NCBI GenBank assembly: GCA_964016885.1
Contig: OZ024740.1
Span: 251,410,001 to 251,474,000 of the forward strand
Direction: 5' to 3'
Source of the DNA: Eledone cirrhosa
Lineage: Eukaryota
DNA: 64,000 nucleotides
The notes under the pieces are model-generated. The model saw nothing but the letters and a program-made list of their open reading frames with translations, was not told the origin of the DNA and did not search any database. Each line of letters opens with the position of its first letter. The stretch's first letter is position 1. Below, in pieces: positions 1 to 26,700 of the stretch. The translations under genes and the position numbers were made by a program.

Positions 1-56
1 CCCCTTGGACGGCTAGAAATTACCTCTCCTTGGACGGCTGGAAAATATGTCTCCTT

Positions 57-81
57 GGACGGCTGGAAATTATCTCCCCTT
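57..81 (+). repeat. Type example of monomer A, 25 bp: GGACGGCTGGAAATTATCTCCCCTT
   Basis: Exact tandem copies at 57-81 and 82-106. Occurs in short runs (mostly about 2-9) throughout and carries the consensus CpG. Confidence 0.97.
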
Positions 82-206
82 GGACGGCTGGAAATTATCT
101 CCCCTTGGACGGCTGGAAATTATCTCCCCTTGGACGGCTAGAAATTACCTCTCCTTGGACGGCTGAAAATTATCTCCCCTTGGACGGCTGGAAATTATCT
201 CCCCCT

Positions 207-233
207 GATTTTTTTTACAAATTATCTCCCCCT
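207..233 (+). repeat. Type example of monomer B, 27 bp: GATTTTTTTTACAAATTATCTCCCCCT (T run 7-11)
   Basis: Tandem runs of up to about 15-16 copies, e.g. 3066-3478 and 17076-17488. Length varies mainly in the T tract. Confidence 0.97.
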
Positions 234-1080
234 GATTTTTTTTACAAATTATCTCCGCCTGATTTTTTTAAATATTATCTCTCCTTGGCTGGCGGGAAAT
301 TATCTCCCCTTGGACGGCTGCAAATTATCTCCGCTTGATTTTTTTTACAAATTATCTTCCCCTGATTTTTTTTTACAAATTATCTCCCCCTGATTTTTTT
401 TACAAATTATCTCCCCTGATTTTTTTTTACAAATTATCTCCCCCTGATTTTTTTTTACAAATTATCTCCCCCTGATTTTTTTTTACAAATTATCTCCCCC
501 TGATTTTTTTACAAATTATCTCCCCCTGATTTTTTTTACAATCTCCGCCTGATTTTTTTAAAAATTATCTTCCCTTGGCTGGCGGGAAATTATCTCCCCT
601 TGGACGGCTGGAAATTATCTCCCCTTGGAAGGATGGAAATTATCTCCCCTTGGACGGCTGGAAATTATCTCCCCTTGCACGGCTGGAAATTATCTCCCCT
701 TGGCTGGAAATTATCTCCCCTTGGACGGCTAGAAATTATCTCTCTTTGGATGGCTGGAAATTATCTCCCTTTGATTTTTTTTACAAATTATCTCCCTCTG
801 ATTTTTTTTACAAATCTCCCCCTGATTTTTTTTTACAAATTATCTCCCCCTGATTTTTTTTACAAACTATCGCCCCTGATTTTTTTACAAATTATCTCCC
901 CTTGGCTGGCTGGAAATTATCTCCCCTTGGAGGCTGGAATTTATCTCCCCTTGGACGGCTGGAAATTACCTCTCCTTGGACGGCTGAAAATTATCTCCCC
1001 TTGGACGGCTGGAAATTATCTCCCCTTGATTTTTTTACAAATTATCTCCCCCTGATTTTTTTTTTACAAATTATCTCCCC

Positions 1081-4000
1081 CTGATTTTTTTTACAAATTA
1101 TCTACGCCTGATTTTTTTAAATATTATCTCTCCTTGGCTGGCGGGAAATTATCTCCCCTTGGAAGGATGGAAATTATCTCCCCTTGGACGGCTGGAAATT
1201 ATCTCCCCTTGCACTGCTGGAAATTATCTCTCCTTGGACGGCTGGAAATTATCTGCCCTTGATTTTGTTTTTACAAATTATCTTCCCCTGATTATTTTTA
1301 CAAATTATCTCCACCTGATTTTTTAAAAAATTATCTCCCCTTGGACGGCTGGAAATTATCTCCCCTTGGCTGGAAATTATCTCCCCTTGGACGGCTAGAA
1401 ATTATCTCTCTTTGGACGGCTGGAAATTATCTCCCCTTGATTTTTTTTACAAATTATCTCCCCCTGATTTTTTTTACAAATTATCTCCCCATGATTTTTA
1501 AAAAAAAAATTATCTCCCCTTCGCTGGCTGGAAATTATCTCCCCTTGGACGCTGGAAATTATAGCCCCTTGGAGGGCTGGAAATTATCTTCCCTTGGACG
1601 GCTGGAAATTATCTCCCCTTGATTTTTTTTACAAATTATCTCCCCCTGATTTTTTTTTACAAATTATCTCCCCCTGATTTTTTTTTTACAAATTATCTCC
1701 GCCTGATTTTTTTAAAAAAATTATCTCCCCTTGGACGGCTGGAAATTATCTCCCCTTGGACGGCTGGAAATTATCTCCCCTTGGACGGCTAGAAATTACC
1801 TCTCCTTGGACGGCTGAAAATTATCTCCCCTTGGACGGCTGCAAATTATCTCCCCTTGATTTTTTTTACAAATTATCCCCCCATGATTTAAAAAAAAAAA
1901 ATTATCTCCCCTTCGCTGGCTGGAAATTATCTCCCCTTGGACGCTGGAAATTATAGCCCCTTGGAGGGCTGGAAATTATCTTCCCTTGGACGGCTGGAAA
2001 TTATCTCCCCTTGATTTTTTTTACAAATTATCTCCCCCTGATTTTTTTTTACAAATTATCTCCCACTGATTTTTTTTTACAAATTATCTCCTCCTGATTT
2101 TTTTTTTACAAATTATCTCCGCCTGATTTTTTAAAAAAAATTATCTCCCCTTGGACGGCTGGAAATTATCTCCCCTTGGACGGCTGGAAATTATCTCCCC
2201 TTGGACGGCTAGAAATTACCTCTCCTTGGACGGCTGAAAATTATCTCCCCTTGGACGGCTGCAAATTATCTCCCCTTGATTTTTTTTACAAATTATCTCC
2301 CCCTGATTTTTTTTACAAATTATCTCCCCCTGATTTTTTTTACAAATTATCTCCCCCTGATTTTTTTTTACAAATTATCTCCCCCTGATTTTTTTTTACA
2401 AATTATCTCCCCCTGATTTTTTTTACAAATTATCTCCCCCTGATTTTTTTTACAAATTATCTCCCCCTGATTTTTTTTACAATCTCCGCCTGATTTTTTA
2501 AAAAATTATCTTCCCTTGGCTGGCGGGAAATTATCTCCCCTTGGACGGCTGGAAATTATCTCCCCTTGGACGGCTAGAAATTATCTCTCTTTGGACGGCT
2601 GGAAATTATCTCCCCTTGATTTTTTTTACAAATTATCTCCCCCTGATTTTTTTTACAAATTATCCCCGCATGATTTTTAAAAAAAAAATTATCTCCCCTT
2701 CGCTGGCTGGAAATTATCTCCCCTTGGACGCTGGAAATTATAGCCCCTTGGAGGGCTGGAAATTATCTTCCCTTGGACGGCTGGAAATTATCTCCCCTTG
2801 ATTTTTTTTACAAATTATCTCCCCCTGATTTTTTTTTACAAATTATCTCCCCCTGATTTTTTTTTACAAATTATCTCCCCCTGATTTTTTTTTTTACAAA
2901 TTATCTCCGCCTGATTTTTAAAAAAAAATTATCTCCCCTTGGACGGCTGGAAATTATCTCCCCTTGGACGGCTGGAAATTATCTCCCCTTGGACGGCTAG
3001 AAATTACCTCTCCTTGGACGGCTGAAAATTATCTCCCCTTGGACGGCTGCAAATTATCTCCCCTTGATTTTTTTTACAAATTATCTCCCCCTGATTTTTT
3101 TTACAAATTATCTCCCCCTGATTTTTTTTACAAATTATCTCCCCCTGATTTTTTTTTACAAATTATCTCCCCCTGATTTTTTTTTACAAATTATCTCCCC
3201 CTGATTTTTTTTACAAATTATCTCCCCCTGATTTTTTTTACAAATTATCTCCCCCGGATTTTTTTTAATAAATTATCTCCCCTTGATTTTTTTTTACAAA
3301 TTATCTCCGCCTGATTTTTTTTTTACAAATTATCTTCCCCTGATTTTTTTACAAATTATCTCCCCCTGATTTTTTTTACAAATTATCTCCCCCTGATTTT
3401 TTTTACAAATTATCTCCCCTTGATTTTTTTTTACAAATTATCTCCCCCTGATTTTTTTTTTACAAATTATCTCCCCCTGATTTTTTTAAAAATTATCTTC
3501 CCTTGGCTGGCGGGAAATTATCTCCCCTTGGACGGCTGGAAATTATCTCCCCTTGGAAGGATGTAAATTATCTCCCCTTGGACGGCTGGAAATTATCTCC
3601 CCTTGCACGGCTGGAAATTATCTCCCCTTGATTTTTTTTACAAATTATCTCCCCCTGATTTTTTTTTACAAATTATCTCCCCCTGATTTTTTTTTACAAA
3701 TTATCTCCCCCTGATTTTTTTTACAAATTATCTCCCCCTGATTTAAAAAAAAAAAATTATCTCCCCTTCGCTGGCTGGAAATTATCTCCCCTTGGACGCT
3801 GGAAATTATAGCCCCTTGGAGGGCTGGAAATTATCTTCCCTTGGACGGCTGGAAATTATCTTCCCTTGGACGGCTGGAAATTATCTCCCCTTGATTTTTT
3901 TTACAAATTATCTCCCCCTGATTTTTTTTTACAAATTATCTCCCCCTGATTTTTTTTTTACAAATTATCTCCCCCTGATTTTTTTTTTACAAATTATCTC

Positions 4001-7000
4001 CGCTTGATTTTTAAAAAAAAATTATCTCCCCTTGGACGGCTGGAAATTATCTCCCCTTGAACGGCTGGAAATTATCTCCCCTTGGACGGCTAGAAATTAT
4101 CTCTCCTTGGACGGCTGAAAATTATCTCCCCTTGGACGGCTGCAAATTATCCCCCCTTGATTTTTTTTACAAATTATCTCCCCCTGATTTTTTTTTACAA
4201 ATTATCTCCCCCTCATTTTTTTTACAAATTATCTACCCCTGATTTTTTTTACAAATTATCTCCCCCTGATTTTTTTTTACAAATTATCTCCCCCTGATTT
4301 TTTTTTACAAATTATCTCCCCCTGATTTTTTTTTTACAAATTATCTCCCCCTGATTTTTTTACAAATTATCTCCCCCTGATTTTTTTTACAATCTCCGCC
4401 TGATTTTTTTAAAAATTATCTTCCCTTGGCTGGCGGGAAATTATCTCCCCTTGGACGGCTGGAAATTATCTCCCCTTGGAAGGATGGAAATTATCTCCCC
4501 TTGGACGGCTGGAAATTATCTCCCCTTGCACGGCTGGAAATTATCTCCCCTTGGCTGGAAATTATCTCCCCTTGGACGGCTAGAAATTATCTCTCTTTGG
4601 ATGGCTGGAAATTATCTCCCTTTGATTTTTTTTACAAATTATCTCCCTCTGATTTTTTTTACAAATCTCCCCCTGATTTTTTTTTACAAATTATCTCCCC
4701 CTGATTTTTTTTACAAACTATCGCCCCTGATTTTTTTACAAATTATCTCCCCTTGGCTGGCTGGAAATTATCTCCCCTTGGAGGCTGGAATTTATCTCCC
4801 CTTGGACGGCTAGAAATTACCTCTCCTTGGACGGCTGGAAAATATGTCTCCTTGGACGGCTGGAAATTATCTCCCCTTGGACGGCTGGAAATTACCTCTC
4901 CTTGGACGGCTGAAAATTATCTCCCCTTGGACGGCTGGAAATTATCTCCCCTTGATTTTTTTACAAATTATCTCCCCCTGATTTTTTTTTACAAATTATC
5001 TCCCCCTGATTTTTTTTACAAATTATCTACGCCTGATTTTTTTAAATATTATCTCTCCTTGGCTGGCGGGAAATTATCTCCCCTTGGAAGGATGGAAATT
5101 ATCTCCCCTTGACGGCTGGAAATTATCTCCCCTTGCACTGCTGGAAATTATCTCCCCTTGGACGGCTGGAAATTATCTGCCCTTGATTTTGTTTTTACAA
5201 ATTATCTTCCCCTGATTATTTTTACAAATTATCTCCACCTGATTTTTTAAAAAATTATCTCCCCTTGGACGGCTGGAAATTATCTCCCCTTGGCTGGAAA
5301 TTATCTCCCCTTGGACGGCTAGAAATTATCTCTCTTTGGACGGCTGGAAATTATCTCCCCTTGATTTTTTTTACAACTTATCTCCGCCTGATTTTTTTTA
5401 AAAAATCATCTCCCCTTGGACGGCTGGAAATTATCTCCCCTTGGACGGCTGGAAATTATCTCTCCTTGGACGGCTAGAAATTACCTCTCCTTGGATAATT
5501 GAAAATTATCTCCCCTTGGACGGCTGGAAATTATCTCCCCTTGATTTTTTTTACAAATTATCTCCCCCTGATTTTTTTTACAAATTATCTCCCCTGATTT
5601 TTTTTTACAAATTATCTCCCCCTGATTTTTTTTTACAAATTATCTCCCCCTGATTTTTTTACAAATTATCTCCCCCTGATTTTTTTTACAATCTCCGCCT
5701 GATTTTTTTAAAAATTATCTTCCCTTGGCTGGCGGGAAATTATCTCCCCTTGGACGGCTGGAAATTATCTCCCCTTGGAAGGATGGAAATTATCTCCCCT
5801 TGGACGGCTGGAAATTATCTCCCCTTGCACGGCTGGAAATTATCTCCCCTTGGCTGGAAATTATCTCCCCTTGGACGGCTAGAAATTATCTCTCTTTGGA
5901 TGGCTGGAAATTATCTCCCTTTGATTTTTTTTACAAATTATCTCCCTCTGATTTTTTTTACAAATCTCCCCCTGATTTTTTTTTACAAATTATCTCCCCC
6001 TGATTTTTTTTACAAATTATCTACGCCTGATTTTTTTAAATATTATCTCTCCTTGGCTGGCGGGAAATTATCTCCCCTTGGAAGGATGGAAATTATCTCC
6101 CCTTGGACGGCTGGAAATTATCTCCCCTTGCACTGCTGGAAATTATCTCCCCTTGGACGGCTGGAAATTATCTGCCCTTGATTTTGTTTTTACAAATTAT
6201 CTTCCCCTGATTATTTTTACAAATTATCTCCACCTGATTTTTTAAAAAATTATCTCCCCTTGGACGGCTGGAAATTATCTCCCCTTGGCTGGAAATTATC
6301 TCCCCTTGGACGGCTAGAAATTATCTCTCTTTGGACGGCTGGAAATTATCTCCCCTTGATTTTTTTTACAAATTATCTCCCCCTGATTTTTTTTACAAAT
6401 TATCTCCCCATGATTTTTAAAAAAAAAATTATCTCCCCTTCGCTGGCTGGAAATTATCTCCCCTTGGACGCTGGAAATTATAGCCCCTTGGAGGGCTGGA
6501 AATTATCTTCCCTTGGACGGCTGGAAATTATCTCCCCTTGATTTTTTTTACAAATTATCTCCCCCTGATTTTTTTTTACAAATTATCTCCCCCTGATTTT
6601 TTTTTTACAAATTATCTCCGCCTGATTTTTTTAAAAAAATTATCTCCCCTTGGACGGCTGGAAATTATCTCCCCTTGGACGGCTGGAAATTATCTCCCCT
6701 TGGACGGCTAGAAATTACCTCTCCTTGGACGGCTGAAAATTATCTCCCCTTGGACGGCTGCAAATTATCTCCCCTTGATTTTTTTTACAAATTATCCCCC
6801 CATGATTTTTAAAAAAAAAATTATCTCCCCTTCGCTGGCTGGAAATTATCTCCCCTTGGACGCTGGAAATTATAGCCCCTTGGAGGGCTGGAAATTATCT
6901 TCCCTTGGACGGCTGGAAATTATCTCCCCTTGATTTTTTTTACAAATTATCTCCCCCTGATTTTTTTTTACAAATTATCTCCCACTGATTTTTTTTTACA

Positions 7001-10000
7001 AATTATCTCCCCCTGATTTTTTTTTTACAAATTATCTCCGCCTGATTTTTTAAAAAAAATTATCTCCCCTTGGACGGCTGGAAATTATCTCCCCTTGGAC
7101 GGCTGGAAATTATCTCCCCTTGGACGGCTAGAAATTACCTCTCCTTGGACGGCTGAAAATTATCTCCCCTTGGACGGCTGCAAATTATCTCCCCTTGATT
7201 TTTTTTACAAATTATCTCCCCCTGATTTTTTTTACAAATTATCTCCCCCTGATTTTTTTTACAAATTATCTCCCCCTGATTTTTTTTTACAAATTATCTC
7301 CCCCTGATTTTTTTTTACAAATTATCTCCCCCTGATTTTTTTTACAAATTATCTCCCCCTGATTTTTTTTACAAATTATCTCCCCCTGATTTTTTTTACA
7401 ATCTCCGCCTGATTTTTTAAAAAATTATCTTCCCTTGGCTGGCGGGAAATTATCTCCCCTTGGACGGCTGGAAATTATCTCCCCTTGGACGGCTAGAAAT
7501 TATCTCTCTTTGGACGGCTGGAAATTATCTCCCCTTGATTTTTTTTACAAATTATCCCCGCATGATTTTTAAAAAAAAAATTATCTCCCCTTCGCTGGCT
7601 GGAAATTATCTCCCCTTGGACGCTGGAAATTATAGCCCCTTGGAGGGCTGGAAATTATCTTCCCTTGGACGGCTGGAAATTATCTCCCCTTGATTTTTTT
7701 TACAAATTATCTCCCCCTGATTTTTTTTTACAAATTATCTCCCCCTGATTTTTTTTTACAAATTATCTCCCCCTGATTTTTTTTTTTACAAATTATCTCC
7801 GCCTGATTTTTAAAAAAAAATTATCTCCCCTTGGACGGCTGGAAATTATCTCCCCTTGGACGGCTGGAAATTATCTCCCCTTGGACGGCTGGAAATTATC
7901 TCCCCTTGGACGGCTAGAAATTACCTCTCCTTGGACGGCTGAAAATTATCTCCCCTTGGACGGCTGCAAATTATCTCCCCTTGATTTTTTTTACAAATTA
8001 TCTCCCCCTGATTTTTTTTACAAATTATCTCCCCCTGATTTTTTTTACAAATTATCTCCCCCTGATTTTTTTTTACAAATTATCTCCCCCTGATTTTTTT
8101 TTACAAATTATCTCCCCCTGATTTTTTTTACAAATTATCTCCCCCTGATTTTTTTTACAAATTATCTCCCCCTGATTTTTTTTAATAAATTATCTCCCCT
8201 TGATTTTTTTTTACAAATTATCTCCCCCTGATTTTTTTTTTACAAATTATCTCCCCCTGATTTTTTTACAAATTATCTCCCCCTGATTTTTTTTACAAAT
8301 TATCTCCCCCTGATTTTTTTTACAAATTATCTCCCCTTGATTTTTTTTTACAAATTATCTCCCCCTGATTTTTTTTTTACAAATTATCTCCCCCTGATTT
8401 TTTTAAAAATTATCTTCCCTTGGCTTGCGGGAAATTATCTCCCCTTGGACGGCTGGAAATTATCTCCCCTTGGAAGGATGTAAATTATCTCCCCTTGGAC
8501 GGCTGGAAATTATCTCCCCTTGCACGGCTGGAAATTATCTCCCCTTGATTTTTTTTACAAATTATCTCCCCCTGATTTTTTTTTACAAATTATCTCCCCC
8601 TGATTTTTTTTACAAATTATCTCCCCCTGATTTAAAAAAAAAAAATTATCTCCCCTTCGCTGGCTGGAAATTATCTCCCCTTGGACGCTGGAAATTATAG
8701 CCCCTTGGAGGGCTGGAAATTATCTTCCCTTGGACGGCTGGAAATTATCTTCCCTTGGACGGCTGGAAATTATCTCCCCTTGATTTTTTTTACAAATTAT
8801 CTCCCCCTGATTTTTTTTTACAAATTATCTCCCCCTGATTTTTTTTTACAAATTATCTCCCCCTGATTTTTTTTTTACAAATTATCTCCGCTTGATTTTT
8901 TAAAAAAAATTATCTCCCCTTGGACGGCTGGAAATTATCTCCCCTTGGACGGCTGGAAATTATCTCCCCTTGGACGGCTAGAAATTATCTCTCCTTGGAC
9001 GGCTGAAAATTATCTCCCCTTGGACGGCTGCAAATTATCTCCCCTTGATTTTTTTTACAAATTATCTCCCCCTGATTTTTTTTTACAAATTATCTCCCCC
9101 TCATTTTTTTTACAAATTATCTACTCCTGATTTTTTTTACAAATTATCTCCCCCTGATTTTTTTTTACAAATTATCTCCCCCTGATTTTTTTTTACAAAT
9201 TATCTCCCCCTGATTTTTTTTTTACAAATTATCTCCCCCTGATTTTTTTACAAATTATCTCCCCCTGATTTTTTTTACAATCTCCGCCTGATTTTTTTAA
9301 AAATTATCTTCCCTTGGCTGGCGGGAAATTATCTCCCCTTGGACGGCTGGAAATTATCTCCCCTTGGAAGGATGGAAATTATCTCCCCTTGGACGGCTGG
9401 AAATTATCTCCCCTTGCACGGCTGGAAATTATCTCCCCTTGGCTGGAAATTATCTCCCCTTGGACGGCTAGAAATTATCTCTCTTTGGATGGCTGGAAAT
9501 TATCTCCCTTTGATTTTTTTTACAAATTATCTCCCTCTGATTTTTTTTACAAATCTCCCCCTGATTTTTTTTTACAAATTATCTCCCCCTGATTTTTTTT
9601 ACAAACTATCGCCCCTGATTTTTTTACAAATTATCTCCCCTTGGCTGGCTGGAAATTATCTCCCCTTGGAGGCTGGAATTTATCTCCCCTTGGACGGCTA
9701 GAAATTACCTCTCCTTGGACGGCTGGAAAATATGTCTCCTTGGACGGCTGGAAATTATCTCCCCTTGGACGGCTGGAAATTACCTCTCCTTGGACGGCTG
9801 AAAATTATCTCCCCTTGGACGGCTGGAAATTATCTCCCCTTGATTTTTTTACAAATTATCTCCCCCTGATTTTTTTTTTACAAATTATCTCCCCCTGATT
9901 TTTTTTACAAATTATCTACGCCTGATTTTTTTAAATATTATCTCTCCTTGGCTGGCGGGAAATTATCTCCCCTTGGAAGGATGGAAATTATCTCCCCTTG

Positions 10001-10265
10001 GACGGCTGGAAATTATCTCCCCTTGCACTGCTGGAAATTATCTCCCCTTGGACGGCTGGAAATTATCTGCCCTTGATTTTGTTTTTACAAATTATCTTCC
10101 CCTGATTATTTTTACAAATTATCTCCACCTGATTTTTTAAAAAATTATCTCCCCTTGGACGGCTGGAAATTATCTCCCCTTGGCTGGAAATTATCTCCCC
10201 TTGGACGGCTAGAAATTATCTCTCTTTGGACGGCTGGAAATTATCTCCCCTTGATTTTTTTTACA
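1081..10265 (+). repeat. ~4.9-kb higher-order duplication: ~1081-5375 repeated at ~6000-10265
   Basis: ORF-track landmark offsets: 1341/6260, 2176/7095 and 2541/7460 = 4919; 4057/8945, 4426/9314 and 4753/9641 = 4888. Shared rare variant TTTAATAAA at 3264 and 8181. Confidence 0.88.
1705..1732 (+). repeat. Type example of linker monomer C: GA-TnAm-TTATCTCCCCTT (B-to-A junction unit)
   Basis: GATTTTTTTAAAAAAATTATCTCCCCTT. It looks like B with ACAAA replaced by an A run and precedes nearly all A runs. Confidence 0.92.
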
Positions 10266-13200
10266 AATTATCTCCCCCTGATTTTTTTTACAAATTATCC
10301 CCCCATGATTTTTTAAAAAAAAATTATCTCCCCTTCGCTGGCTGGAAATTATCTCCCCTTGGACGCTGGAAATTATAGCCCCTTGGAGGGCTGGAAATTA
10401 TCTTCCCTTGGACGGCTGGAAATTATCTCCCCTTGATTTTTTTTACAAATTATCTCCCCCTGATTTTTTTTTACAAATTATCTCCCCCTAATTTTTTTAA
10501 AAAAATTATCTCCCCTTGGACGGCTGGAAATTATCTCCCCTTGGACGGCTGGAAATTATCTCCCCTTGGACGGCTAGAAATTACCTCTCCTTGGACGGCT
10601 GAAAATTATCTCCCCTTGGACGGCTGCAAATTATCTCCCCTTGATTTTTTTTACAAATTATCCCCCCATGATTTTTAAAAAAAAAATTATCTCCCCTTCG
10701 CTGGCTGGAAATTATCTCCCCTTGGACGCTGGAAATTATAGCCCCTTGGAGGGCTGGAAATTATCTTCCCTTCGACGGCTGGAAATTATCTCCCCTTGAT
10801 TTTTTTTACAAATTATCTCCCCCTGATTTTTTTTTACAAATTATCTCCCACTGATTTTTTTTTACAAATTATCTCCCCCTGATTTTTTTTTTACAAATTA
10901 TCTCCGCCTGATTTTTTAAAAAAAATTATCTCCCCTTGGACGGCTGGAAATTATCTCCCCTTGGACGGCTGGAAATTATCTCCCCTTGGACGGCTAGAAA
11001 TTACCTCTCCTTGGACGGCTGAAAATTATCTCCCCTTGGACGGCTGCAAATTATCTCCCCTTGATTTTTTTTACAAATTATCTCCCCCTGATTTTTTTTA
11101 CAAATTATCTCCCCCTGATTTTTTTTACAAATTATCTCCCCCTGATTTTTTTTTACAAATTATCTCCCCCTGATTTTTTTTTACAAATTATCTCCCCCTG
11201 ATTTTTTTTACAAATTATCTCCCCCTGATTTTTTTTACAATCTCCGCCTGATTTTTTAAAAAATTATCTTCCCTTGGCTGGCGGGAAATTATCTCCCCTT
11301 GGACGGCTGGAAATTATCTCCCCTTGGACGGCTAGAAATTATCTCTCTTTGGACGGCTGGAAATTATCTCCCCTTGATTTTTTTTACAAATTATCTCCCC
11401 CTGATTTTTTTTACAAATTATCCCCGCATGATTTTTAAAAAAAAAATTATCTCCCCTTCGCTGGCTGGAAATTATCTCCCCTTGGACGCTGGAAATTATA
11501 GCCCCTTGGAGGGCTGGAAATTATCTTCCCTTGGACGGCTGGAAATTATCTCCCCTTGATTTTTTTTACAAATTATCTCCCCCTGATTTTTTTTTACAAA
11601 TTATCTCCCCCTGATTTTTTTTTACAAATTATCTCCCCCTGATTTTTTTTTTTACAAATTATCTCCGCCTGATTTAAAAAAAAAAATTATCTCCCCTTGG
11701 ACGGCTGGAAATTATCTCCCCTTGGACGGCTGGAAATTATCTCCCCTTGGACGGCTAGAAATTACCTCTCCTTGGACGGCTGAAAATTATCTCCCATTGG
11801 ACGGCTGCAAATTATCTCCCCTTGATTTTTTTTACAAATTATCTCCCCCTGATTTTTTTTACAAATTATCTCCCCCTGATTTTTTTTACAAATTATCTCC
11901 CCCTGATTTTTTTTTACAAATTATCTCCCCCTGATTTTTTTTTACAAATTATCTCCCCCTGATTTTTTTTACAAATTATCTCCGCCTGATTTTTTTAAAT
12001 ATTATCTCTCCTTGGCTGGCGGGAAATTATCTCCCCTTGGAAGGATGGAAATTATCTCCCCTTGGACGGCTGGAAATTATCTCCCCTTGCACTGCTGGAA
12101 ATTATCTCCCCTTGGACGGCTGGAAATTATCTGCCCTTGATTTTGTTTTTACAAATTATCTTCCCCTGATTATTTTTACAAATTATCTCCACCTGATTTT
12201 TTAAAAAATTATCTCCCCTTGGACGGCTGGAAATTATCTCCCCTTGGCTGGAAATTATCTCCCCTTGGACGGCTAGAAATTATCTCTCTTTGGACGGCTG
12301 GAAATTATCTCCCCTTGATTTTTTTTACAAATTATCTCCCCCTGATTTTTTTTACAAATTATCCCCCCATGATTTAAAAAATAAAAATTATCTCCCCTTC
12401 GCTGGCTGGAAATTATCTCCCCTTGGACGCTGGAAATTATAGCCCCTTGGAGGGCTGGAAATTATCTTCCCTTGGACGGCTGGAAATTATCTCCCCTTGA
12501 TTTTTTTTACAAATTATCTCCCCCTGATTTTTTTTTTACAAATTATCTCCGCCTGATTTTTTTAAAAAAATTATCTCCCCTTGGACGGCTGGAAATTATC
12601 TCCCCTTGGACGGCTGGAAATTATCTCCCGTTGGACGGCTAGAAATTACCTCTCCTTGGACGGCTGAAAATTATCTCCCCTTGGACGGCTGCAAATTATC
12701 TCCCCTTGATTTTTTTTACAAATTATCCCCCCATGATTTTTAAAAAAAAAATTATCTCCCCTTCGCTGGCTGGAAATTATCTCCCCTTGGACGCTGGAAA
12801 TTATAGCCCCTTGGAGGGCTGGAAATTATCTTCCCTTGGACGGCTGGAAATTATCTCCCCTTGATTTTTTTTACAAATTATCTCCCTCTGATTTTTTTTT
12901 ACAAATTATCTCCCACTGATTTTTTTTTACAAATTATCTCCCCCTGATTTTTTTTTTACAAATTATCTCCGCGTGATTTTTTTTAAAAAATTATCTCCCC
13001 TTGGACGGCTGGAAATTATCTCCCCTTGGACGGCTGGAAATTATCTCGCCTTGGACGGCTAGAAATTACCTCTCCTTGGACGGCTGAAAATTATCTCCCC
13101 TTGGACGGCTGCAAATTATCTCCTCTTGATTTTTTTTACAAATTATCTCCCCCTGATTTTTTTTACAAATTATCTCCCCCTGATTTTTTTTACAAATTAT

Positions 13201-13329
13201 CTCCCCCTGATTTTTTTTTACAAATTATCTCCCCCTGATTTTTTTTCCAAATTATCTCCCCCTGATTTTTTTTACAAATTATCTCCCCCTGATTTTTTTT
13301 ACAAATTATCTCCCCCTGATTTTTTTTAC

Positions 13330-16300
13330 AATCTCCGCCTGATTTTTTAAAAAATTATCTTCCCTTGGCTGGCGGGAAATTATCTCCCCTTGGACGGCTG
13401 GAAATTATCTCCCCTTGGACGGCTAGAAATTATCTCTCTTTGGACGGCTGGAAATTATCTCCCCTTGATTTTTTTTACAAATTATCTCCCCCTGATTTTT
13501 TTTACAAATTATCCCCGCATGATTTTTAAAAAAAAAATTATCTCCCCTTCGCTGGCTGGAAATTATCTCCCCTTGGACGCTGGAAATTATAGCCCCTTGG
13601 AGGGCTGGAAATTATCTTCCCTTGGACGGCTGGAAATTATCTCCCCTTAATTTTTTTTACAAATTATCTCCCCCTGATTTTTTTTTACAAATTATCTCCC
13701 CCTGATTTTTTTTTACAAATTATCTCCCCCTGATTTTTTTTTTTACAAATTATCTCCGCCTGATTTTTAAAAAAAAATTATCTCCCCTTGGACGGCTGGA
13801 AATTATCTCCCCTTGGACGGCTGGAAATTATCTCCCCTTGGACGGCTAGAAATTACCTCTCCTTGGACGGCTGAAAATTATCTCCCCTTGGACGGCTGCA
13901 AATTATCTCCCCTTGATTTTTTTTACAAATTATCTCCCCCTGATTTTTTTTACAAATTATCTCCCCCTGATTTTTTTTACAAATTATCTCCCCCTGATTT
14001 TTTTTTACAAATTATCTCCCCCTGATTTTTTTTTACAAATTATCTCCCCCTGATTTTTTTTACAAATTATCTCCCCCTGATTTTTTTTACAAATTATCTC
14101 CCCCTGATTTTTTTTTACAAATTATCTCCCCTTGATTTTTTTTTACAAATTATCTGCCCCTGATTTTTTTTTTACAAATTATCTCCCCCTGATTTTTTTA
14201 CAAATTATCTCCCCCTGATTTTTTTTACAAATTATCTCCCGCTGATTTTTTTTACAAATTATCTCCCCTTGATTTTTTTTTACAAATTATCTCCCCTTGA
14301 TTTTTTTTTACAAATTATCTCCCCCTGATTTTTTTTTTACAAATTATCTCCCGCTGATTTTTTTAAAAATTATCTTCCCTTGGCTGGCGGGAAATTATCT
14401 CCCCTTGGACGGCTGGAAATTATCTCCCCTTGGAAGGATGTAAATTATCTCCCCTTGGACGGCTGGAAATTATCTCCCCTTGCACGGCTGGAAATTATCT
14501 CCCCTTGATTTTTTTTACAAATTATCTCCCCCTGATTTTTTTTTACAAATTATCTCCCCCTGATTTTTTTTTACAAATTATCTCCCCCTGATTTTTTTTA
14601 CAAATTATCTCCCCCTGATTTTTAAAAAAAAAATTATCTCCCCTTCGCTGGCTGGAAATTATCTCCCCTTGGACGCTGGAAATTATAGCCCCTTGGAGGG
14701 CTGGAAATTATCTTCCCTTGGACGGCTGGAAATTATCTTCCCTTGGACGGCTGGAAATTATCTCCCCTTGATTTTTTTTACAAATTATCTCCCCCTGATT
14801 TTTTTTTACAAATTATCTCCCCCTGATTTTTTTTACAAATTATCTACCCCTGATTTTTTTTACAAATTATCTCCCCCTGATTTTTTTTTACAAATTATCT
14901 CCCTCTGATTTTTTTTTACAAATTATCTCCCCCTGATTTTTTTTTTACAAATTATCTCCCCCTGATTTTTTTACAAATTATCTCCCCCTGATTTTTTTTA
15001 CAATCTCCGCCTGATTTTTTAAAAAATTATCTTCCCTTGGCTGGCGGGAAATTATCTCCCCTTGGACGGCTGGAAATTATCTCCCCTTGGACGGCTAGAA
15101 ATTATCTCTCTTTGGACGGCTGGAAATTATCTCCCCTTGATTTTTTTTACAAATTATCTCCCCCTGATTTTTTTTACAAATTATCCCCGCATGATTTTAA
15201 AAAAAAAAATTATCTCCCCTTCGCTGGCTGGAAATTATCTCCCCTTGGACGCTGGAAATTATAGCCCCTTGGAGGGCTGGAAATTATCTTCCCTTGGACG
15301 GCTGGAAATTATCTCCCCTTGATTTTTTTTACAAATTATCTCCCCCTGATTTTTTTTTACAAATTATCTCCCCCTGATTTTTTTTTACAAATTATCTCCC
15401 CCTGATTTTTTTTTTTACAAATTATCTCCGCCTGATTTTTAAAAAAAAATTATCTCCCCTTGGACGGGTGGAAATTATCTCCCCTTGGACGGCTGGAAAT
15501 TATCTCCCCTTGGACGGCTAGAAATTACCTCTCCTTGGACGGCTGAAAATTATCTCCCCTTGGACGGCTGCAAATTATCTCCCCTTGATTTTTTTTACAA
15601 ATTATCTCCCCCTGATTTTTTTTACAAATTATCTCCCCCTGATTTTTTTTACAAATTATCTCCCCCTGATTTTTTTTTACAAATTATCTCCCCCTGATTT
15701 TTTTTTACAAATTATCTCCCCCTGATTTTTTTTACAAATTATCTCCCCCTGATTTTTTTTACAAATTATCTCCCCCTGATTTTTTTTTACAAATTATCTC
15801 CCCTTGATTTTTTTTTACAAATTATCTCCCCCTGATTTTTTTTTTACAAATTATCTCCCCCTGATTTTTTTACAAATTATCTCCCCCTGATTTTTTTTAC
15901 AAATTATCTCCCCCTGATTTTTTTTACAAATTATCTCCCCTTGATTTTTTTTTACAAATTATCTCCCCTTGATTTTTTTTTACAAATTATCTCCCCCTGA
16001 TTTTTTTTTTACAAATTATCTCCCCCTGATTTTTTTAAAAATTATCTTCCCTTGGCTGGCGGGAAATTATCTCCCCTTGGACGGCTGGAAATTATCTCCC
16101 CTTGGAAGGATGTAAATTATCTCCCCTTGGACGGCTGGAAATTATCTCCCCTTGCACGGCTGGAAATTATCTCCCCTTGATTTTTTTTACAAATTATCTC
16201 CCCCTGATTTTTTTTTACAAATTATCTCCCCCTGATTTTTTTTTACAAATTATCTCCCCCTGATTTTTTTTACAAATTATCTCCCCCTGATTTTAAAAAA

Positions 16301-16700
16301 AAAAATTATCTCCCCTTCGCTGGCTGGAAATTATCTCCCCTTGGACGCTGGAAATTATAGCCCCTTGGAGGGCTGGAAATTATCTTCCCTTGGACGGCTG
16401 GAAATTATCTTCCCTTGGACGGCTGGAAATTATCTCCCCTTGATTTTTTTTACAAATTATCTCCCCCTGATTTTTTTTTACAAATTATCTCCCCCTGATT
16501 TTTTTTACAAATTATCTACCCCTGATTTTTTTTACAAATTATCTCCCCCTGATTTTTTTTTACAAATTATCTCCCTCTGATTTTTTTTTACAAATTATCT
16601 CCCCCTGATTTTTTTTTTACAAATTATCTCCCCCTGATTTTTTTCCAAATTATCTCCCCCTGATTTTTTTTACAATCTCCGCCTGATTTTTTAAAAAATT
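13330..16700 (+). repeat. 1,672-bp tandem higher-order unit, 2 copies (also at ~32245-35615)
   Basis: 13390/15062, 13813/15485, 14669/16341 and 32305/33977 all differ by 1672. Confidence 0.85.
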
Positions 16701-17229
16701 ATCTCCCCTTCGCTGGCTGGAAATTATCTCCCCTTGGACGCTGGAAATTATAGCCCCTTGGAGGGCTGGAAATTATCTTCCCTTGGACGGCTGGAAATTA
16801 TCTCCCCTTGATTTTTTTTACAAATTATCTCCCCCTGATTTTTTTTTACAAATTATCTCCCCCTGATTTTTTTTTACAAATTATCTCCCCCTGATTTTTT
16901 TTTTTACAAATTATCTCCGCCTGATTTTTAAAAAAAAATTATCTCCCCTTGGACGGCTGGAAATTATCTCCCCTTGGACGGCTGGAAATTATCTCCCCTT
17001 GGACGGCTAGAAATTACCTCTCCTTGGACGGCTGAAAATTATCTCCCCTTGGACGGCTGCAAATTATCTCCCCTTGATTTTTTTTACAAATTATCTCCCC
17101 CTGATTTTTTTTACAAATTATCTCCCCCTGATTTTTTTTACAAATTATCTCCCCCTGATTTTTTTTTACAAATTATCTCCCCCTGATTTTTTTTTACAAA
17201 TTATCTCCCCCTGATTTTTTTTACAAATT

Positions 17230-19000
17230 ATCTCCCCCTGATTTTTTTTACAAATTATCTCCCCCTGATTTTTTTTTACAAATTATCTCCCCTTGATTTT
17301 TTTTTACAAATTATCTCCCCCTGATTTTTTTTTTACAAATTATCTCCCCCTGATTTTTTTACAAATTATCTCCCCCTGATTTTTTTTACAAATTATCTCC
17401 CCCTGATTTTTTTTACAAATTATCTCCCCTTGATTTTTTTTTACAAATTATCTCCCCCTGATTTTTTTTTTACAAATTATCTCCCCCTAATTTTTTTAAA
17501 AATTATCTTCCCTTGGCTGGCGGGAAATTATCTCCCCTTGGACGGCTGGAAATTATCTCCCCTTGGAAGGATGTAAATTATCTCCCCTTGGACGGCTGGA
17601 AATTATCTCCCCTTGCACGGCTGGAAATTATCTCCCCTTGATTTTTTTTACAAATTATCTCCCCCTGATTTTTTTTTACAAATTATCTCCCCCTGATTTT
17701 TTTTTACAAATTATCTCCCCCTGATTTTTTTTACAAATTATCTCCCCCTGATTTAAAAAAAAAAAATTATCTCCCCTTCGCTGGCTGGAAATTATCTCCC
17801 CTTGGACGCTGGAAATTATAGCCCCTTGGAGGGCTGGAAATTATCTTCCCTTGGACGGCTGGAAATTATCTTCCCTTGGACGGCTGGAAATTATCTCCCC
17901 TTGATTTTTTTTACAAATTATCTCCCCCTGATTTTTTTTTACAAATTATCTCCCCCTGATTTTTTTTTACAAATTATCTCCCCCTGATTTTTTTTTTACA
18001 AATTATCTCCGCTTGATTTTTTAAAAAAAATTATCTCCCCTTGGACGGCTGGAAATTATCTCCCCTTGGACGGCTAGAAATTATCTCTCCTTGGACGGCT
18101 GAAAATTATCTCCCCTTGGACGGCTGCAAATTATCTCCCCTTGATTTTTTTTACAAATTATCTCCCCCTGATTTTTTTTTACAAATTATCTCCCCCTGAT
18201 TTTTTTTTACAAATTATCTCCCCTTGATTTTTTTTTACAAATTATCTCCCCCTGATTTTTTTTTTACAAATTATCTCCCCCTGATTTTTTTACAAATTAT
18301 CTCCCCCTGATTTTTTTTACAAATTATCTCCCCCTGATTTTTTTTACAAATTATCTCCCCTTGATTTTTTTTTACAAATTATCTCCCCCTGATTTTTTTT
18401 TTACAAATTATCTCCCCCTGATTTTTTTAAAAATTATCTTCCCTTGGCTGGCGGGAAATTATCTCCCCTTGGACGGCTGGAAATTATCTCCCCTTGGAAG
18501 GATGTAAATTATCTCCCCTTGGACGGCTGGAAATTATCTCCCCTTGCACGGCTGGAAATTATCTCCCCTTGATTTTTTTTACAAATTATCTCCCCCTGAT
18601 TTTTTTTTACAAATTATCTCCCCCTGATTTTTTTTTACAAATTATCTCCCCCTGATTTTTTTTACAAATTATCTCCCCCTGATTTTTAAAAAAAAAATTA
18701 TCTCCCCTTCGCTGGCTGGAAATTATCTCCCCTTGGACGCTGGAAATTATAGCCCCTTGGAGGGCTGGAAATTATCTTCCCTTGGACGGCTGGAAATTAT
18801 CTTCCCTTGGACGGCTGGAAATTATCTCCCCTTGATTTTTTTTACAAATTATCTCCCCCTGATTTTTTTTTACAAATTATCTCCCCCTGATTTTTTTTTA
18901 CAAATTATCTCCCCCTGATTTTTTTTTTACAAATTATCTCCGCTTGATTTTTAAAAAAAAATTATCTCCCCTTGGACGGCTGGAAATTATCTCCCCTTGG
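17230..19000 (+). repeat. 931-bp tandem higher-order unit, about 2 copies (recurs near 36.7, 40.6 and 53.9 kb; 881-bp version near 50.2 kb)
   Basis: 17802/18733, 36717/37648, 40616/41547 and 53935/54866 all differ by 931. 50185/51066 differ by 881, consistent with two 25-bp monomers missing near 50870. Confidence 0.85.
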
Positions 19001-22000
19001 ACGGCTGGAAATTATCTCCCCTTGGACGGCTAGAAATTATCTCTCCTTGGACGGCTGAAAATTATCTCCCCTTGGACGGCTGCAAATTATCTCCCCTTTA
19101 TTTTTTTTACAAATTATCTCCCCCTGATTTTTTTTTACAAATTATCTCCCCCTCATTTTTTTACAAATTATCTACCCCTGATTTTTTTTACAAATTATCT
19201 CCCCCTGATTTTTTTTTACAAATTATCTCCCTCTGATTTTTTTTACAAATTATCTCCCCCTGATTTTTTTTTTACAAATTATCTCCCCCTGATTTTTTTA
19301 AAAATTATCTCCCCCTGATTTTTTTACAATCTCCGCCTGATTTTTTTAAAAATTATCTTCCCTTGGCTGGCGGGAAATTATCTCCCCTTGGACGGCTGGA
19401 AATTATCTCCCCTTGGAAGGATGGAAATTATCTCCCCTTGGACGGCTGGATATTATCTCCCCTTGCACGGCTGGAAATTATCTCCCCTTGGCTGGAAATT
19501 ATCTCCCCTTGGACGGCTAGAAATTATCTCTCTTTGGACGGCTGGAAATTATCTCCCTTTGATTTTTTTTACAAATTATCTCCCTCTGATATTTTTTACA
19601 AATCTCCCCCTGATTTTTTAAAAAAAATTATCTCCCCTTCGCTGGCTGGAAATTATCTCCCCTTGGACACTGGAAATTATAGCCCCTTGGAGGGCTGGAA
19701 ATTATCTTCCCTTGGACGGCTGGAAATTATCTCCCCTTGATTTTTTTTACAAATTATCTCCGCCTGATTTTTTTTAAAAATTATCTCTCCTTGGACGGCT
19801 GGAAATTATCTCCCCTTGATTTTTTTTACAAATTATCTCCCCCTGATTTTTTTTACAAATTATCTCCCCCTGATTTTTTTTTACAAATTATCTACCACTG
19901 ATTTTTTTTACAAATTATCTCCCCCTGATTTTTTTTACAAATTATCTCCCCCTGATTTTTCTTTTACAAATTATCTCCCCCTGATTTTTTTACAAATTAT
20001 CTCCCCCTGATTTTTTTACAAATTATCTCCGCCTGATTTTTTTAAATATTATCTTCCCTTGGCTGGCGGGAAATTATCTCCCCTTGGACGGCTGGAAATT
20101 ATCTGCCCTTGATTTTGTTTTTACAAATTATCTTCCACTGATTTTTTTTACAAATTATCTCCACCTGATTTTTTAAAAAATTATCTCCCCTTGGAAGGCT
20201 GGAAATTATCTCCCCTTGGACGGCTAGAAATTATCTCTCTTTGGACGGCTGGAAATTATCTCCCCTTGATTTTTTTTACAAATTATCTCCCCCTGATTTT
20301 TTTTACAAATATCCCAGTGATTTTTTTTTAAAAATTATCTCCCCTTCGCTGGCTGGAAATTATCTCCCCTTGGACGCTGGAAATTATAGCCCCTTGGAGG
20401 GCTGGAAATTATCTTCCCTTGGACGGCTGGAAATTATCTCCCCTTGATTTTTTTTACAAATTATCTCCCCCTGATTTTTTTTTACAAATTATCTCCCCCT
20501 GATTTTTTTTTACAAATTATCTCCCCCTGATTTTTTTTACAACTTATCTCCGCCTGATTTTTTTTAAAAAATCATCTCCCCTTGGACGGCTGGAAATTAT
20601 CTCCCCTTGGACGGCTGGAAATTATCTCCCCTTGATTTTTTTACAAATTATCTCCCCCTGATTTTTTTTTACAAATTATCTCCCCCTGATTTTTTTTACA
20701 AATTATCTCCCCCTGATTTTTTTTACAAATTATCTCCCCCTGATTTTTTTTACAAATTATCTCCGCCTGATTTTTTTAAATATTATCTCTCCTTGGCTGG
20801 CGGGAAATTATCTCCCCTTGGACGGCTGCAAATTATCTCCGCTTGATTTTTTTTACAAATTATCTCCCCCTGATTTTTTTTTAAAAATTATCTCCCCCTG
20901 ATTTTTTTTACAAATTATCTCCCCTGATTTTTTTTTACAAATTATCTCCCCCTGATTTTTTTTTACAAATTATCTCCCCCTGATTTTTTTTTTACAAATT
21001 ATCTCCCCCTGATTTTTTTACAAATTATCTCCCCCTGATTTTTTTTACAATCTCCGCCTGATTTTTTTAAAAATTATCTTCCCTTGGCTGGCGGGAAATT
21101 ATCTCCCCTTGGACGGCTGGAAATTATCTCCCCTTGGAAGGATGGAAATTATCTCCCCTTGGACGGCTGGAAATTATCTCCCCTTGCACGGCTGGAAATT
21201 ATCTCCCCTTGGCTGGAAATTATCTCCCCTTGGACGGCTAGAAATTATCTCTCTTTGGATGGCTGGAAATTATCTCCCTTTGATTTTTTTTACAAATTAT
21301 CTCCCTCTGATTTTTTTTACAAATCTCCCCCTGATTTTTTTTTACAAATTATCTCCCCCTGATTTTTTTTACAAACTATCTCCCCCTGATTTTTTTACAA
21401 ATTATCTCCCCTTGGCTGGCTGGAAATTATCTCCCCTTGGAGGCTGGAATTTATCTCCCCTTGGACGGCTAGAAATTACCTCTCCTTGGACGGCTGGAAA
21501 ATATGTCTCCTTGGACGGCTGGAAATTATCTCCCCTTGGACGGCTGGAAATTACCTCTCCTTGGACGGCTGAAAATTATCTCCCCTTGGACGGCTGGAAA
21601 TTATCTCCCCTTGCACTGCTGGAAATTATCTCCCCTTGGACGGCTGGAAATTATCTGCCCTTGATTTTGTTTTTACAAATTATCTTCCCCTGATTATTTT
21701 TACAAATTATCTCCACCTGATTTTTTAAAAAATTATCTCCCCTTGGACGGCTGGAAATTATCTCCCCTTGGCTGGAAATTATCTCCCCTTGGACGGCTAG
21801 AAATTATCTCTCTTTGGACGGCTGGAAATTATCTCCCCTTGATTTTTTTTACAAATTATCTCCCCCTGATTTTTTTTACAAATTATCCCCCCATGATTTT
21901 TAAAAAAAAAATTATCTCCCCTTCGCTGGCTGGAAATTATCTCCCCTTGGACGCTGGAAATTATAGCCCCTTGGAGGGCTGGAAATTATCTTCCCTTGGA

Positions 22001-23779
22001 CGGCTGGAAATTATCTCCCCTTGATTTTTTTTACAAATTATCTCCCCCTGATTTTTTTTAACAAATTATCTCCCCCTGATTTTTTTTTTACAAATTATCT
22101 CCGCCTGATTTTTTTAAAAAAATTATCTCCCCTTGGACGGCTGGAAATTATCTCCCCTTGGACGGCTGGAAATTATCTCCCGTTGGACGGCTAGAAATTA
22201 CCTCTCCTTGGACGGCTGAAAATTATCTCCCCTTGGACGGCTGCAAATTATCTCCCCTTGATTTTTTTTACAAATTATCCCCCCATGATTTTTAAAAAAA
22301 AAATTATCTCCCCTTCGCTGGCTGGAAATTATCTCCCCTTGGACGCTGGAAATTATAGCCCCTTGGAGGGCTGGAAATTATCTTCCCTTGGACGGCTGGA
22401 AATTATCTCCCCTTGATTTTTTTTACAAATTATCTCCCTCTGATTTTTTTTTACAAATTATCTCCCACTGATTTTTTTTTACAAATTATCTCCCCCTGAT
22501 TTTTTTTTTACAAATTATCTCCGCGTGATTTTTTTAAAAAAATTATCTCCCCTTGGACGGCTGGAAATTATCTCCCCTTGGACGGCTGGAAATTATCTCG
22601 CCTTGGACGGCTAGAAATTACCTCTCCTTGGACGGCTGAAAATTATCTCCCCTTGGACGGCTGCAAATTATCTCCTCTTGATTTTTTTTACAAATTATCT
22701 CCCCCTGATTTTTTTTACAAATTATCTCCCCCTGATTTTTTTTACAAATTATCTCCCCCTGATTTTTTTTTACAAATTATCTCCCCCTGATTTTTTTTCC
22801 AAATTATCTCCCCCTGATTTTTTTTACAAATTATCTCCCCCTGATTTTTTTTACAAATTATCTCCCCCTGATTTTTTTTACAATCTCCGCCTGATTTTTT
22901 AAAAAATTATCTTCCCTTGGCTGGCGGGAAATTATCTCCCCTTGGACGGCTGGAAATTATCTCCCCTTGGACGGCTAGAAATTATCTCTCTTTGGACGGC
23001 TGGAAATTATCTCCCCTTGATTTTTTTTACAAATTATCTCCCCCTGATTTTTTTTACAAATTATCCCCGCATGATTTTTAAAAAAAAAATTATCTCCCCT
23101 TCGCTGGCTGGAAATTATCTCCCCTTGGACGCTGGAAATTATAGCCCCTTGGAGGGCTGGAAATTATCTTCCCTTGGACGGCTGGAAATTATCTCCCCTT
23201 AATTTTTTTTACAAATTATCTCCCCCTGATTTTTTTTACAATCTCCGCCTGATTTTTAAAAAAAAATTATCTCCCCTTGGACGGCTGGAAATTATCTCCC
23301 CTTGGACGGCTGGAAATTATCTCCCCTTGGACGGCTAGAAATTACCTCTCCTTGGACGGCTGAAAATTATCTCCCCTTGGACGGCTGCAAATTATCTCCC
23401 CTTGATTTTTTTTACAAATTATCTCCCCCTGATTTTTTTTACAAATTATCTCCCCCTGATTTTTTTTACAAATTATCTCCCCCTGATTTTTTTTTACAAA
23501 TTATCTCCCCCTGATTTTTTTTTACAAATTAACTCCCCCTGATTTTTTTTACAAATTATCTCCCCCTGATTTTTTTTACAAATTATCTCCCCCTGATTTT
23601 TTTTTACAAATTATCTCCCCTTGATTTTTTTTTACAAATTATCTGCCCCTGATTTTTTTTTTACAAATTATCTCCCCCTGATTTTTTTACAAATTATCTC
23701 CCCCTGATTTTTTTTACAAATTATCTCCCGCTGATTTTTTTTACAAATTATCTCCCCTTGATTTTTTTTTACAAATTAT

Positions 23780-26700
23780 CTCCCCTTGATTTTTTTTTAC
23801 AAATTATCTCCCCCTGATTTTTTTTTTACAAATTATCTCCCCCTGATTTTTTTAAAAATTATCTTCCCTTGGCTGGCGGGAAATTATCTCCCCTTGGACG
23901 GCTGGAAATTATCTCCCCTTGGAAGGATGTAAATTATCTCCCCTTGGACGGCTGGAAATTATCTCCCCTTGCACGGCTGGAAATTATCTCCCCTTGATTT
24001 TTTTTACAAATTATCTCCCCCTGATTTTTTTTTACAAATTATCTCCCCCTGATTTTTTTTTACAAATTATCTCCCCCTGATTTTTTTTACAAATTATCTC
24101 CCCCTGATTTTTAAAAAAAAAATTATCTCCCCTTCGCTGGCTGGAAATTATCTCCCCTTGGACGCTGGAAATTATAGCCCCTTGGAGGGCTGGAAATTAT
24201 CTTCCCTTGGACGGCTGGAAATTATCTTCCCTTGGACGGCTGGAAATTATCTCCCCTTGATTTTTTTTACAAATTATCTCCCCCTGATTTTTTTTTACAA
24301 ATTATCTCCCCCTGATTTTTTTTACAAATTATCTACCCCTGATTTTTTTTACAAATTATCTCCCCCTGATTTTTTTTTACAAATTATCTCCCTCTGATTT
24401 TTTTTTACAAATTATCTCCCCCTGATTTTTTTTTTACAAATTATCTCCCCCTGATTTTTTTACAAATTATCTCCCCCTGATTTTTTTTACAATCTCCGCC
24501 TGATTTTTTAAAAAATTATCTTCCCTTGGCTGGCGGGAAATTATCTCCCCTTGGACGGCTGGAAATTATCTCCCCTTGGACGGCTAGAAATTATCTCTCT
24601 TTGGACGGCTGCAAATTATCTCCCCTTGATTTTTTTTACAAATTATCTCCCCCTGATTTTTTTACAAATTATCCCCGCATGATTTTTAAAAAAAAAATTA
24701 TCTCCCCTTCGCTGGCTGGAAATTATCTCCCCTTGGACGCTGGAAATTATAGCCCCTTGGAGGGCTGGAAATTATCTTCCCTTGGACGGCTGGAAATTAT
24801 CTCCCCTTGATTTTTTTTACAAATTATCTCCCCCTGATTTTTTTTTACAAATTATCTCCCCCTGATTTTTTTTTACAAATTATCTCCCCCTGATTTTTTT
24901 TTTTACAAATTATCTCCGCCTGATTTTTAAAAAAAAATTATCTCCCCTTGGACGGCTGGAAATTATCTCCCCTTGGACGGCTGGAAATTATCTCCCCTTG
25001 GACGGCTAGAAATTACCTCTCCTTGGACGGCTGAAAATTATCTCCCCTTGGACGGCTGCAAATTATCTCCCCTTGATTTTTTTTACAAATTATCTCCCCC
25101 TGATTTTTTTTACAAATTATCTCCCCCTGATTTTTTTTACAAATTATCTCCCCCTGATTTTTTTTTACAAATTATCTCCCCCTGATTTTTTTTTACAAAT
25201 TATCTCCCCCTGATTTTTTTTACAAATTATCTCCCCCTGATTTTTTTTACAAATTATCTCCCCCTGATTTTTTTTTACAAATTATCTCCCCTTGATTTTT
25301 TTTTACAAATTATCTCCCCCTGATTTTTTTTTTACAAATTATCTCCCCCTGATTTTTTTACAAATTATCTCCCCCTGATTTTTTTTACAAATTATCTCCC
25401 CCTGATTTTTTTTACAAATTATCTCCCCTTGATTTTTTTCTACAAATTATCTCCCCCTGATTTTTTTTTTACAAATTATCTCCCCCTGATTTTTTTAAAA
25501 ATTATCTTCCCTTGGCTGGCGGGAAATTATCTCCCCTTGGACGGCTGGAAATTATCTCCCCTTGGAAGGATGTAAATTATCTCCCCTTGGACGGCTGGAA
25601 ATTATCTCCCCTTGCACGGCTGGAAATTATCTCCCCTTGATTTTTTTTACAAATTATCTCCCCCTGATTTTTTTTTACAAATTATCTCCCCCTGATTTTT
25701 TTTTACAAATTATCTCCCCCTGATTTTTTTTACAAATTATCTCCCCCTGATTTTTAAAAAAAAAATTATCTCCCCTTCGCTGGCTGGAAATTATCTCCCC
25801 TTGGACGCTGGAAATTATAGCCCCTTGGAGGGCTGGAAATTATCTTCCCTTGGACGGCTGGAAATTATCTTCCCTTGGACGGCTGGAAATTATCTCCCCT
25901 TGATTTTTTTTACAAATTATCTCCCCCTGATTTTTTTTTACAAATTATCTCCCCCTGATTTTTTTTACAAATTATCTACCCCTGATTTTTTTTACAAATT
26001 ATCTCCCCCTGATTTTTTTTTACAAATTATCTCCCTCTGATTTTTTTTTACAAATTATCTCCCCCTGATTTTTTTTTTACAAATTATCTCCCCCTGATTT
26101 TTTTACAAATTATCTCCCCCTGATTTTTTTTACAATCTCCGCCTGATTTTTTAAAAAATTATCTTCCCTTGGCTGGCGGGAAATTATCTCCCCTTGGACG
26201 GCTGGAAATTATCTCCCCTTGGACGGCTAGAAATTATCTCTCTTTGGACGGCTGGAAATTATCTCCCCTTGATTTTTTTTACAAATTATCTCCCCCTGAT
26301 TTTTTTACAAATTATCCCCGCATGATTTTTAAAAAAAAAATTATCTCCCCTTCGCTGGCTGGAAATTATCTCCCCTTGGACGCTGGAAATTATAGCCCCT
26401 TGGAGGGCTGGAAATTATCTTCCCTTGGACGGCTGGAAATTATCTCCCCTTGATTTTTTTTACAAATTATCTCCCCCTGATTTTTTTTTACAAATTATCT
26501 CCCCCTGATTTTTTTTTACAAATTATCTCCCCCTGATTTTTTTTTTTACAAATTATCTCCGCCTGATTTTAAAAAAAAAATTATCTCCCCTTGGACGGCT
26601 GGAAATTATCTCCCCTTGGACGGCTGGAAATTATCTCCCCTTGGACGGCTAGAAATTACCTCTCCTTGGACGGCTGAAAATTATCTCCCATTGGACGGCT

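Follow-up and report, generated by a model that had tools for sequence, protein, structure and literature searches.

The locus studied here raises the question of how a perfect hairpin can arise within a single monomer of a satellite array. In the stretch of DNA that we analyzed, 64,000 nucleotides from Eledone cirrhosa (the window), a spacer that usually reads CGGC appears once as TAAT, and a sequence-only reading had attributed this change to one four-base template switch. Our analyses show that the apparent four-base, hairpin-making event consists of two events, and that the order in which neighboring bases mutated is kept in the amplified copies of a satellite. The hairpin is an ordinary mutational scar, formed in two steps and amplified, and the kinds of mutation involved have already been described. 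As one mutation cluster in non-coding satellite DNA, its value is that of a worked example.

The window (1..64000, plus strand) is satellite array throughout. Two monomer classes, one of 25 bp with a G-rich spacer and one of about 27 bp with a T-run spacer, are arranged in irregular higher-order repeats. The array lies on contig C1 of the 3.0-Gb genome and extends over about 0.9 Mb; it starts at an assembly gap of 200 N about 218 kb to the left of the window, and older sub-arrays are interleaved with it. Related arrays are present on further contigs. Contig C123 may be a piece of the C1 gap or another haplotype. We decomposed 1.06 Mb around the window into monomers.

The parent of the variant has a GAA loop and occurs in 55 copies in the window, where a monomer with a GGA loop is the commonest (375 copies). 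The two derived spacers, referred to here as T allele and C allele (Table 1), occur once each in the window, at the positions given by the sequence-only reading. Its choice of parent was right as well, as the slot keeps the ancestral spacer in 36 copies, 29 on C1 and 7 in the 199.5 kb sampled from the 2.9-Mb C123, which served us as the outgroup. The ancestral monomer pairs at three of the seven stem positions, and fold prediction gave no such hairpin for it. For the C allele the predicted fold is weak and confined to the minus strand. The 7-bp stem of the T allele is predicted to fold with −3.8 kcal/mol, which is not unusual when compared with shuffled sequences (z −1.30; 23 of 200 shuffles fold as well).

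Table 1. Alleles, changes and repeat slots at the locus, in window positions
Feature	Position	Strand	Copies or basis
Derived T allele GATAATT-GAA-AATTATC, 7-bp perfect inverted repeat with 3-base loop	5494..5510	+	1 of 18 genome copies
Older C allele GACAATT-GAA-AATTATC, 6 of 7 pairs	29329..29345	+	1 of 69 genome copies
Second, later change C>T, closing the lone stem mismatch	5496..5496	+	Nesting
First change GGC>AAT, common to all 87 copies	5497..5499	+	Copy comparison
Higher-order-repeat slot around the T allele, monomer types 34-35-1-38-9-[variant]-1-0-31	5363..5595	+	
Homologous higher-order-repeat slot around the C allele	29195..29430	+	
Example of the ancestral spacer GACGGCT-GAA-AATTATC, other slots	158..174	+	

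Neither allele is confined to the window. Genome-wide, exact matches numbered 87, of which 18 read GATAATT and 69 GACAATT, so that what had been described as one four-base event seen once is a family of copies whose two alleles differ by a single later C>T. All 18 GATAATT copies lie within 222 kb of C1; the GACAATT copies are divided between C1 (56) and C123 (13). The 74 copies on C1 share or derive from one flanking context, and three of these occupy a second slot, whose flanks are shared in part. Given this one flanking context and the ancestral outgroup, the window sites descend from one unit and not from separate conversion tracts. The 87 copies represent one slot and one origin, followed by amplification. 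An abundant related monomer that has GATAATT or GACAATT as its ancestral spacer had been considered beforehand as an alternative source, and this was borne out in part: GACAATT, with its 69 copies, is an amplified older allele. As a side observation, the AAT allele is also found 16 monomers downstream of its usual place, in the second slot (L052:4794; paralogues near C1 251.56 and 251.60 Mb), which it reached via a junction or conversion.

The order of the two changes can be read from linked markers. The derived junction monomer 201 was found in 14 of the 18 T copies, 13 times with marker 76 and once with its variant 670, and the remaining four copies lack the region. Both derived markers are also present in 4 of the 69 C copies, all on C123, but the pair is missing from every one of the 56 located on C1; outgroup copies are without the junction monomer. 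Diversity amounts to 1.4 substitutions per kb among T copies versus 4.0 among C copies (14 and 62 usable copies, respectively). Since C copies on C123 carry markers of the T group, the T copies are nested within the C copies, and from this it follows that GACAATT came first and that GATAATT differs from it by one later C>T. Hence GGC>AAT was the first change and the single C>T the second. Exchange between the monomer and its markers could mimic the nesting, at the cost of extra events. The copy at 29.3 kb, taken before as a shorter tract or a partial revertant, has the three-change form that is ancestral to the four-change clade nested in it. For human multinucleotide variants, simultaneous and consecutive adjacent changes have been catalogued (PMC6633265); in these terms, a shared triple with a rarer adjacent change nested in it is a simultaneous plus a consecutive variant, told apart by copy frequency. 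Unlike the human variants, the copies compared here are paralogues within a single genome, and CpG has little effect (18 of 504).

How did the first step come about? We tentatively favor, at somewhat less than even confidence, a template switch followed by amplification and the later C>T. The new AAT(T) is the reverse complement of the AATT core three bases downstream, and a direct copy fits equally, because AATT is self-complementary and the tract has no orientation. During synthesis, a polymerase would briefly copy the adjacent AATT core in reverse complement, which would turn GGC into AAT in one monomer in a single burst. The repeat unit with AAT would then have been amplified, to 87 copies in all, and one sub-lineage would have gained a single C>T, templated or plain, that perfected the 7-bp hairpin. 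That the first step was one event and templated is what we infer. Of the hairpin-templated origin proposed earlier, there remains a template switch as narrowly the best single mechanism for the three-base step, together with a final C>T that perfects a 6/7 quasi-palindrome; its four-base history and a Ripley conversion for the first step have to be given up.

The classical Ripley model requires a near-perfect repeat beforehand, which a four-point template switch does not (PMC5453318). As the ancestor pairs at 3/7 positions and has no predicted fold, the first step was not a classical Ripley conversion; a prior near-repeat (6/7) was present only for the single-base second step. Ripley correction yields a perfect repeat in one event, whereas nesting of T in C means two events here, and instead of a recurrent hotspot we found one origin, no array-wide excess and no triple changes in the commonest monomer. 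The second step is one transition, of a kind that a great-ape scan describes as small quasi-palindrome conversions inseparable from background mutation (PMC7954356).

The three-base step shares with four-point short-range switches adjacent substitutions that match a reverse complement three bases away (PMC5453318; PMC7954356). In contrast to these, the tract comprises 3-4 bases, consists of A and T only and lies inside a repeat. It would not pass the filters of the great-ape study, in which the median fragment had 12 bases and fragments without all four nucleotides or with repeat masking were removed (PMC7954356). Published template-switch scans filter out satellite settings as repeats. Compared with alternative triplets, p values ranged from 0.07 to 0.18, which is not better than background in this comparison. 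Loop inversion, which marks some products of four-point switches, was not seen in 1.98 Mb sampled (overlaps included), apart from the 18 T copies read on the reverse strand. The first step may therefore be said to fit the four-point model weakly. No report of template switching in a satellite array was found, judged by titles and abstract openings, and the monomer core string gave no match in the papers searched.

If templating were frequent in this array, changes matching a nearby reverse complement should be in excess, as the sequence-only reading had proposed. Five contig groups supplied 1.55 Mb of young array, in which we assigned parents by flank-anchored bubbles; this gave 732 events, 590 of them novel; assignment by recombinant pairs was dropped as too permissive. 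After leaving out 36 of 540 novel SNVs that lie beside T or A runs, 504 remained, and six multi-base rows were left out as T-run shifts. The expected excess did not materialize at a significant level for either class of change. SNVs that perfect a hairpin numbered 35 versus 30.3 ± 4.3 expected for stems of at least 5, 19 versus 16.5 ± 3.2 for at least 6 and 4 versus 2.8 for at least 7. The 21 multi-base changes, focal event included, yielded 7 stems of at least 4 (4.6-5.1 expected) and 4 of at least 5 (2.0-2.2 expected). Direct-repeat templating of SNVs was not in excess either (3 versus 5.2).

At the focal spacer, none of the 27 triplets makes a better quasi-palindrome than AAT, which shares the first rank (p 0.07 with uniform weights, 0.11 when weighted by the spectrum and 0.18 under AT bias). 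The sample contained just one further clean three-base change, the singleton CGC>ATT, and it likewise gives an AATT stem (p 0.30-0.49). For a given C in the clade, the chance of C->T is about 0.055 (8 of 146), and the site was picked for looking perfect. The GGA-loop monomer, which has the same arms and is five-fold commoner, had no match genome-wide with a triple change at the spacer site.

Some further multi-base changes were seen in passing. The CGC>ATT change lies in the spacer of another monomer (L062:8823-8846), and a twin unit at a distance of about 106 kb does not have it. A TC>AG doublet in two copies (L175; C3 about 163.24 Mb) produces a stem of 5 bp closed by a 3-base loop (p 0.07-0.11). 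In three copies (L208-L210; C898, C1058), a two-base change places a second, directly repeated GGAAAT core within the spacer; direct-repeat templating seems to occur too.

The template switch just described presupposes that the three bases changed together, and the first step was probably one burst, as far as copy comparison can tell. The 1.064 Mb around the window include 793 parent copies but neither one- nor two-step transition forms. In the upstream context of the lineage itself, the intermediates gave 0, 0 and 1 match genome-wide, the lone match coming from a repeat unit other than this one. Over 869 run-collapsed bases, the closest ancestral unit is identical to its derived counterpart, with no linked change, and genome-wide no other context contains AAT that could have served as donor. 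The alternative that comes nearest is a series of consecutive ordinary transitions, assisted by non-allelic gene conversion that imports one- and two-step alleles, with intermediates lost by array turnover and the hairpin being coincidental. We regard this as a serious, if doubtful, possibility. The four changes all belong to the commonest class, C:G>T:A transitions (of 504 SNVs, 92 are C>T and 40 G>A), so ordinary transitions at this spacer would lead to the hairpin anyway. Each step is a transition that is also seen singly: one-step forms of the monomer are abundant genome-wide, with 909 copies of AGC/AAC type and 1012 of GAC/GAT type. The double change AAC, present in 32 copies, arose by steps at least three times, each origin adjoining a one-step parent. 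Consecutive adjacent mutations are moreover a recognized class (PMC6633265).

The absence of intermediates in the lineage is set against a stepwise series in sister slots. On C123, a sister slot interleaved with AAT units (L213, L214) contains CGGC in nine units, CGAC in two and CAAC in two, with no other substitution in about 700 bases, and this series without flanking differences means that missing linked changes are no proof of a single event. In the homologous C123 slot, two AAC and two GAC units lie about 2 kb or less from AAT units, as partial donors. The AAC units, however, look younger, with no flanking differences from their parents compared with 4.0 substitutions per kb in the AAT clade, and are therefore unlikely donors; a full AAT donor was not found. 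Against a purely stepwise origin also speaks that CpG transitions make up only 18 of 504 SNVs. As in centromeric satellites, clustered differences occur here in one repeat unit, and the three AAT copies in the second slot resemble the movement of alleles between units. In Arabidopsis centromeres, most mutation clusters trace to conversion from nearby units, and 15 of 16 had a nearby donor unit (bioRxiv 10.1101/2025.06.02.657473). Unlike in that system, a full AAT donor is absent outside the clade, and only partial alleles could be imported.

A single event need not be templated. An error-prone polymerase or a tandem lesion, for example CC>TT on the lower strand, might have introduced the three bases at once, followed by an unrelated C>T, which we consider unlikely. 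In agreement with such an origin, the new bases in multi-base changes are mostly A or T (35 of 45) and mostly form no hairpin, AAT-like stems reach only p 0.18 under AT bias, and in humans, too, there are adjacent three-base changes for which no mechanism is known (PMC6633265). However, both clean three-base changes in our sample make an AATT stem, and the monomer has undergone just one other change, which closes the stem.

Still less probable is a hairpin ratchet, in which fold-back repair would fix the four transition mismatches of the GAA-loop quasi-palindrome singly, and the array would record each rung, from GGC via GAC or AGC to AAC, AAT and finally TAAT. Multi-transition spacers all belong to the GAA-loop class (1,926 copies), with none in 15,608 copies of other classes in the 1.55-Mb sample. 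The three AAC origins, found incidentally, give p of about 0.007, a post hoc value from few events and from blocks partly chosen for such alleles. In unbiased blocks the comparison was 3/20 versus 10/144 (p 0.2), and a test by type gave 2/8 versus 6/43 (p 0.6). Second hits tend to lie near first hits in general (14 of 53 within 2 bases, p 0.03). Genome-wide, GAC-type copies number 1012 with a GAA loop versus 179 with a GGA loop, and AGC-type copies 909 versus 2974; such counts reflect the amplification of few lineages and were hence not taken as rates. If the ratchet held true, satellite arrays would offer a natural way to assay structure-directed mutation in a eukaryotic germline.

Two candidate signals were examined and set aside. 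The four transitions were enriched in the monomer with the GAA loop (16/58 versus 15/204), but the excess came mostly from allele-chosen blocks and otherwise fell to 3/20 versus 10/144. Plant-type decay of methylated C in CG and CHG contexts would suit all four sites, but CpG transitions account for 18 of 504 novel SNVs, and spacer positions 4-7 have at most about twice the typical per-site count.

One four-base template switch that made the perfect hairpin directly, with GACAATT as a revertant or an independent shorter tract, is very improbable and largely refuted by the nesting. Its tract would begin and finish on paired bases, which would suit both classical switch routes, and TAAT is among only 2 of 81 four-base options that make a 7-bp stem. 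Yet nesting of T in C would then require at least two reversions, or exchange between monomer and markers over about 400 bases, and the shared flanks exclude independent tracts.

Although the array adjoins an assembly gap and raw reads did not bridge the site, a sequencing or assembly artefact can hardly account for 87 copies that are spread over two contigs and whose flanks vary in a tree-like manner, or for an AAT core spanned by contigs from two public samples. In these data (samples X13 and X15, one study) a 59-base contig covers the core and differs in one letter, and the depth there exceeds zero; the letters beside the core number only 29 and 27, short of our 31-letter bridging rule, and X13 could itself be the sample that was assembled. 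The contig end, 30 bases past 29331, would fit the T allele. In the raw-read runs X23 and X24 no read bridged the site, in X18 and X19 no read was placed, and public runs with small word shares were left out.

The surroundings of the array show features of their own. Left of the gap (C1 left of 251,192,170; blocks L111-L119) lies a different, AT-rich repeat. A sub-array that is older and more diverged, with GGCCGGCT spacers and units rich in AT, lies interspersed in the young array (C1 251.77-251.81 and 252.03-252.17 Mb; L080-L084, L106-L130). Across the window (e.g., 5390-5417) and in the sampled arrays, monomers in which a T run is directly followed by an A run, long quasi-palindromes themselves, have a T/A boundary that slides even though the total remains close to 12, 14 or 15 (3,755 monomers; correlation −0.87). 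This sliding could be explained by run-length slippage or by hairpin templating.
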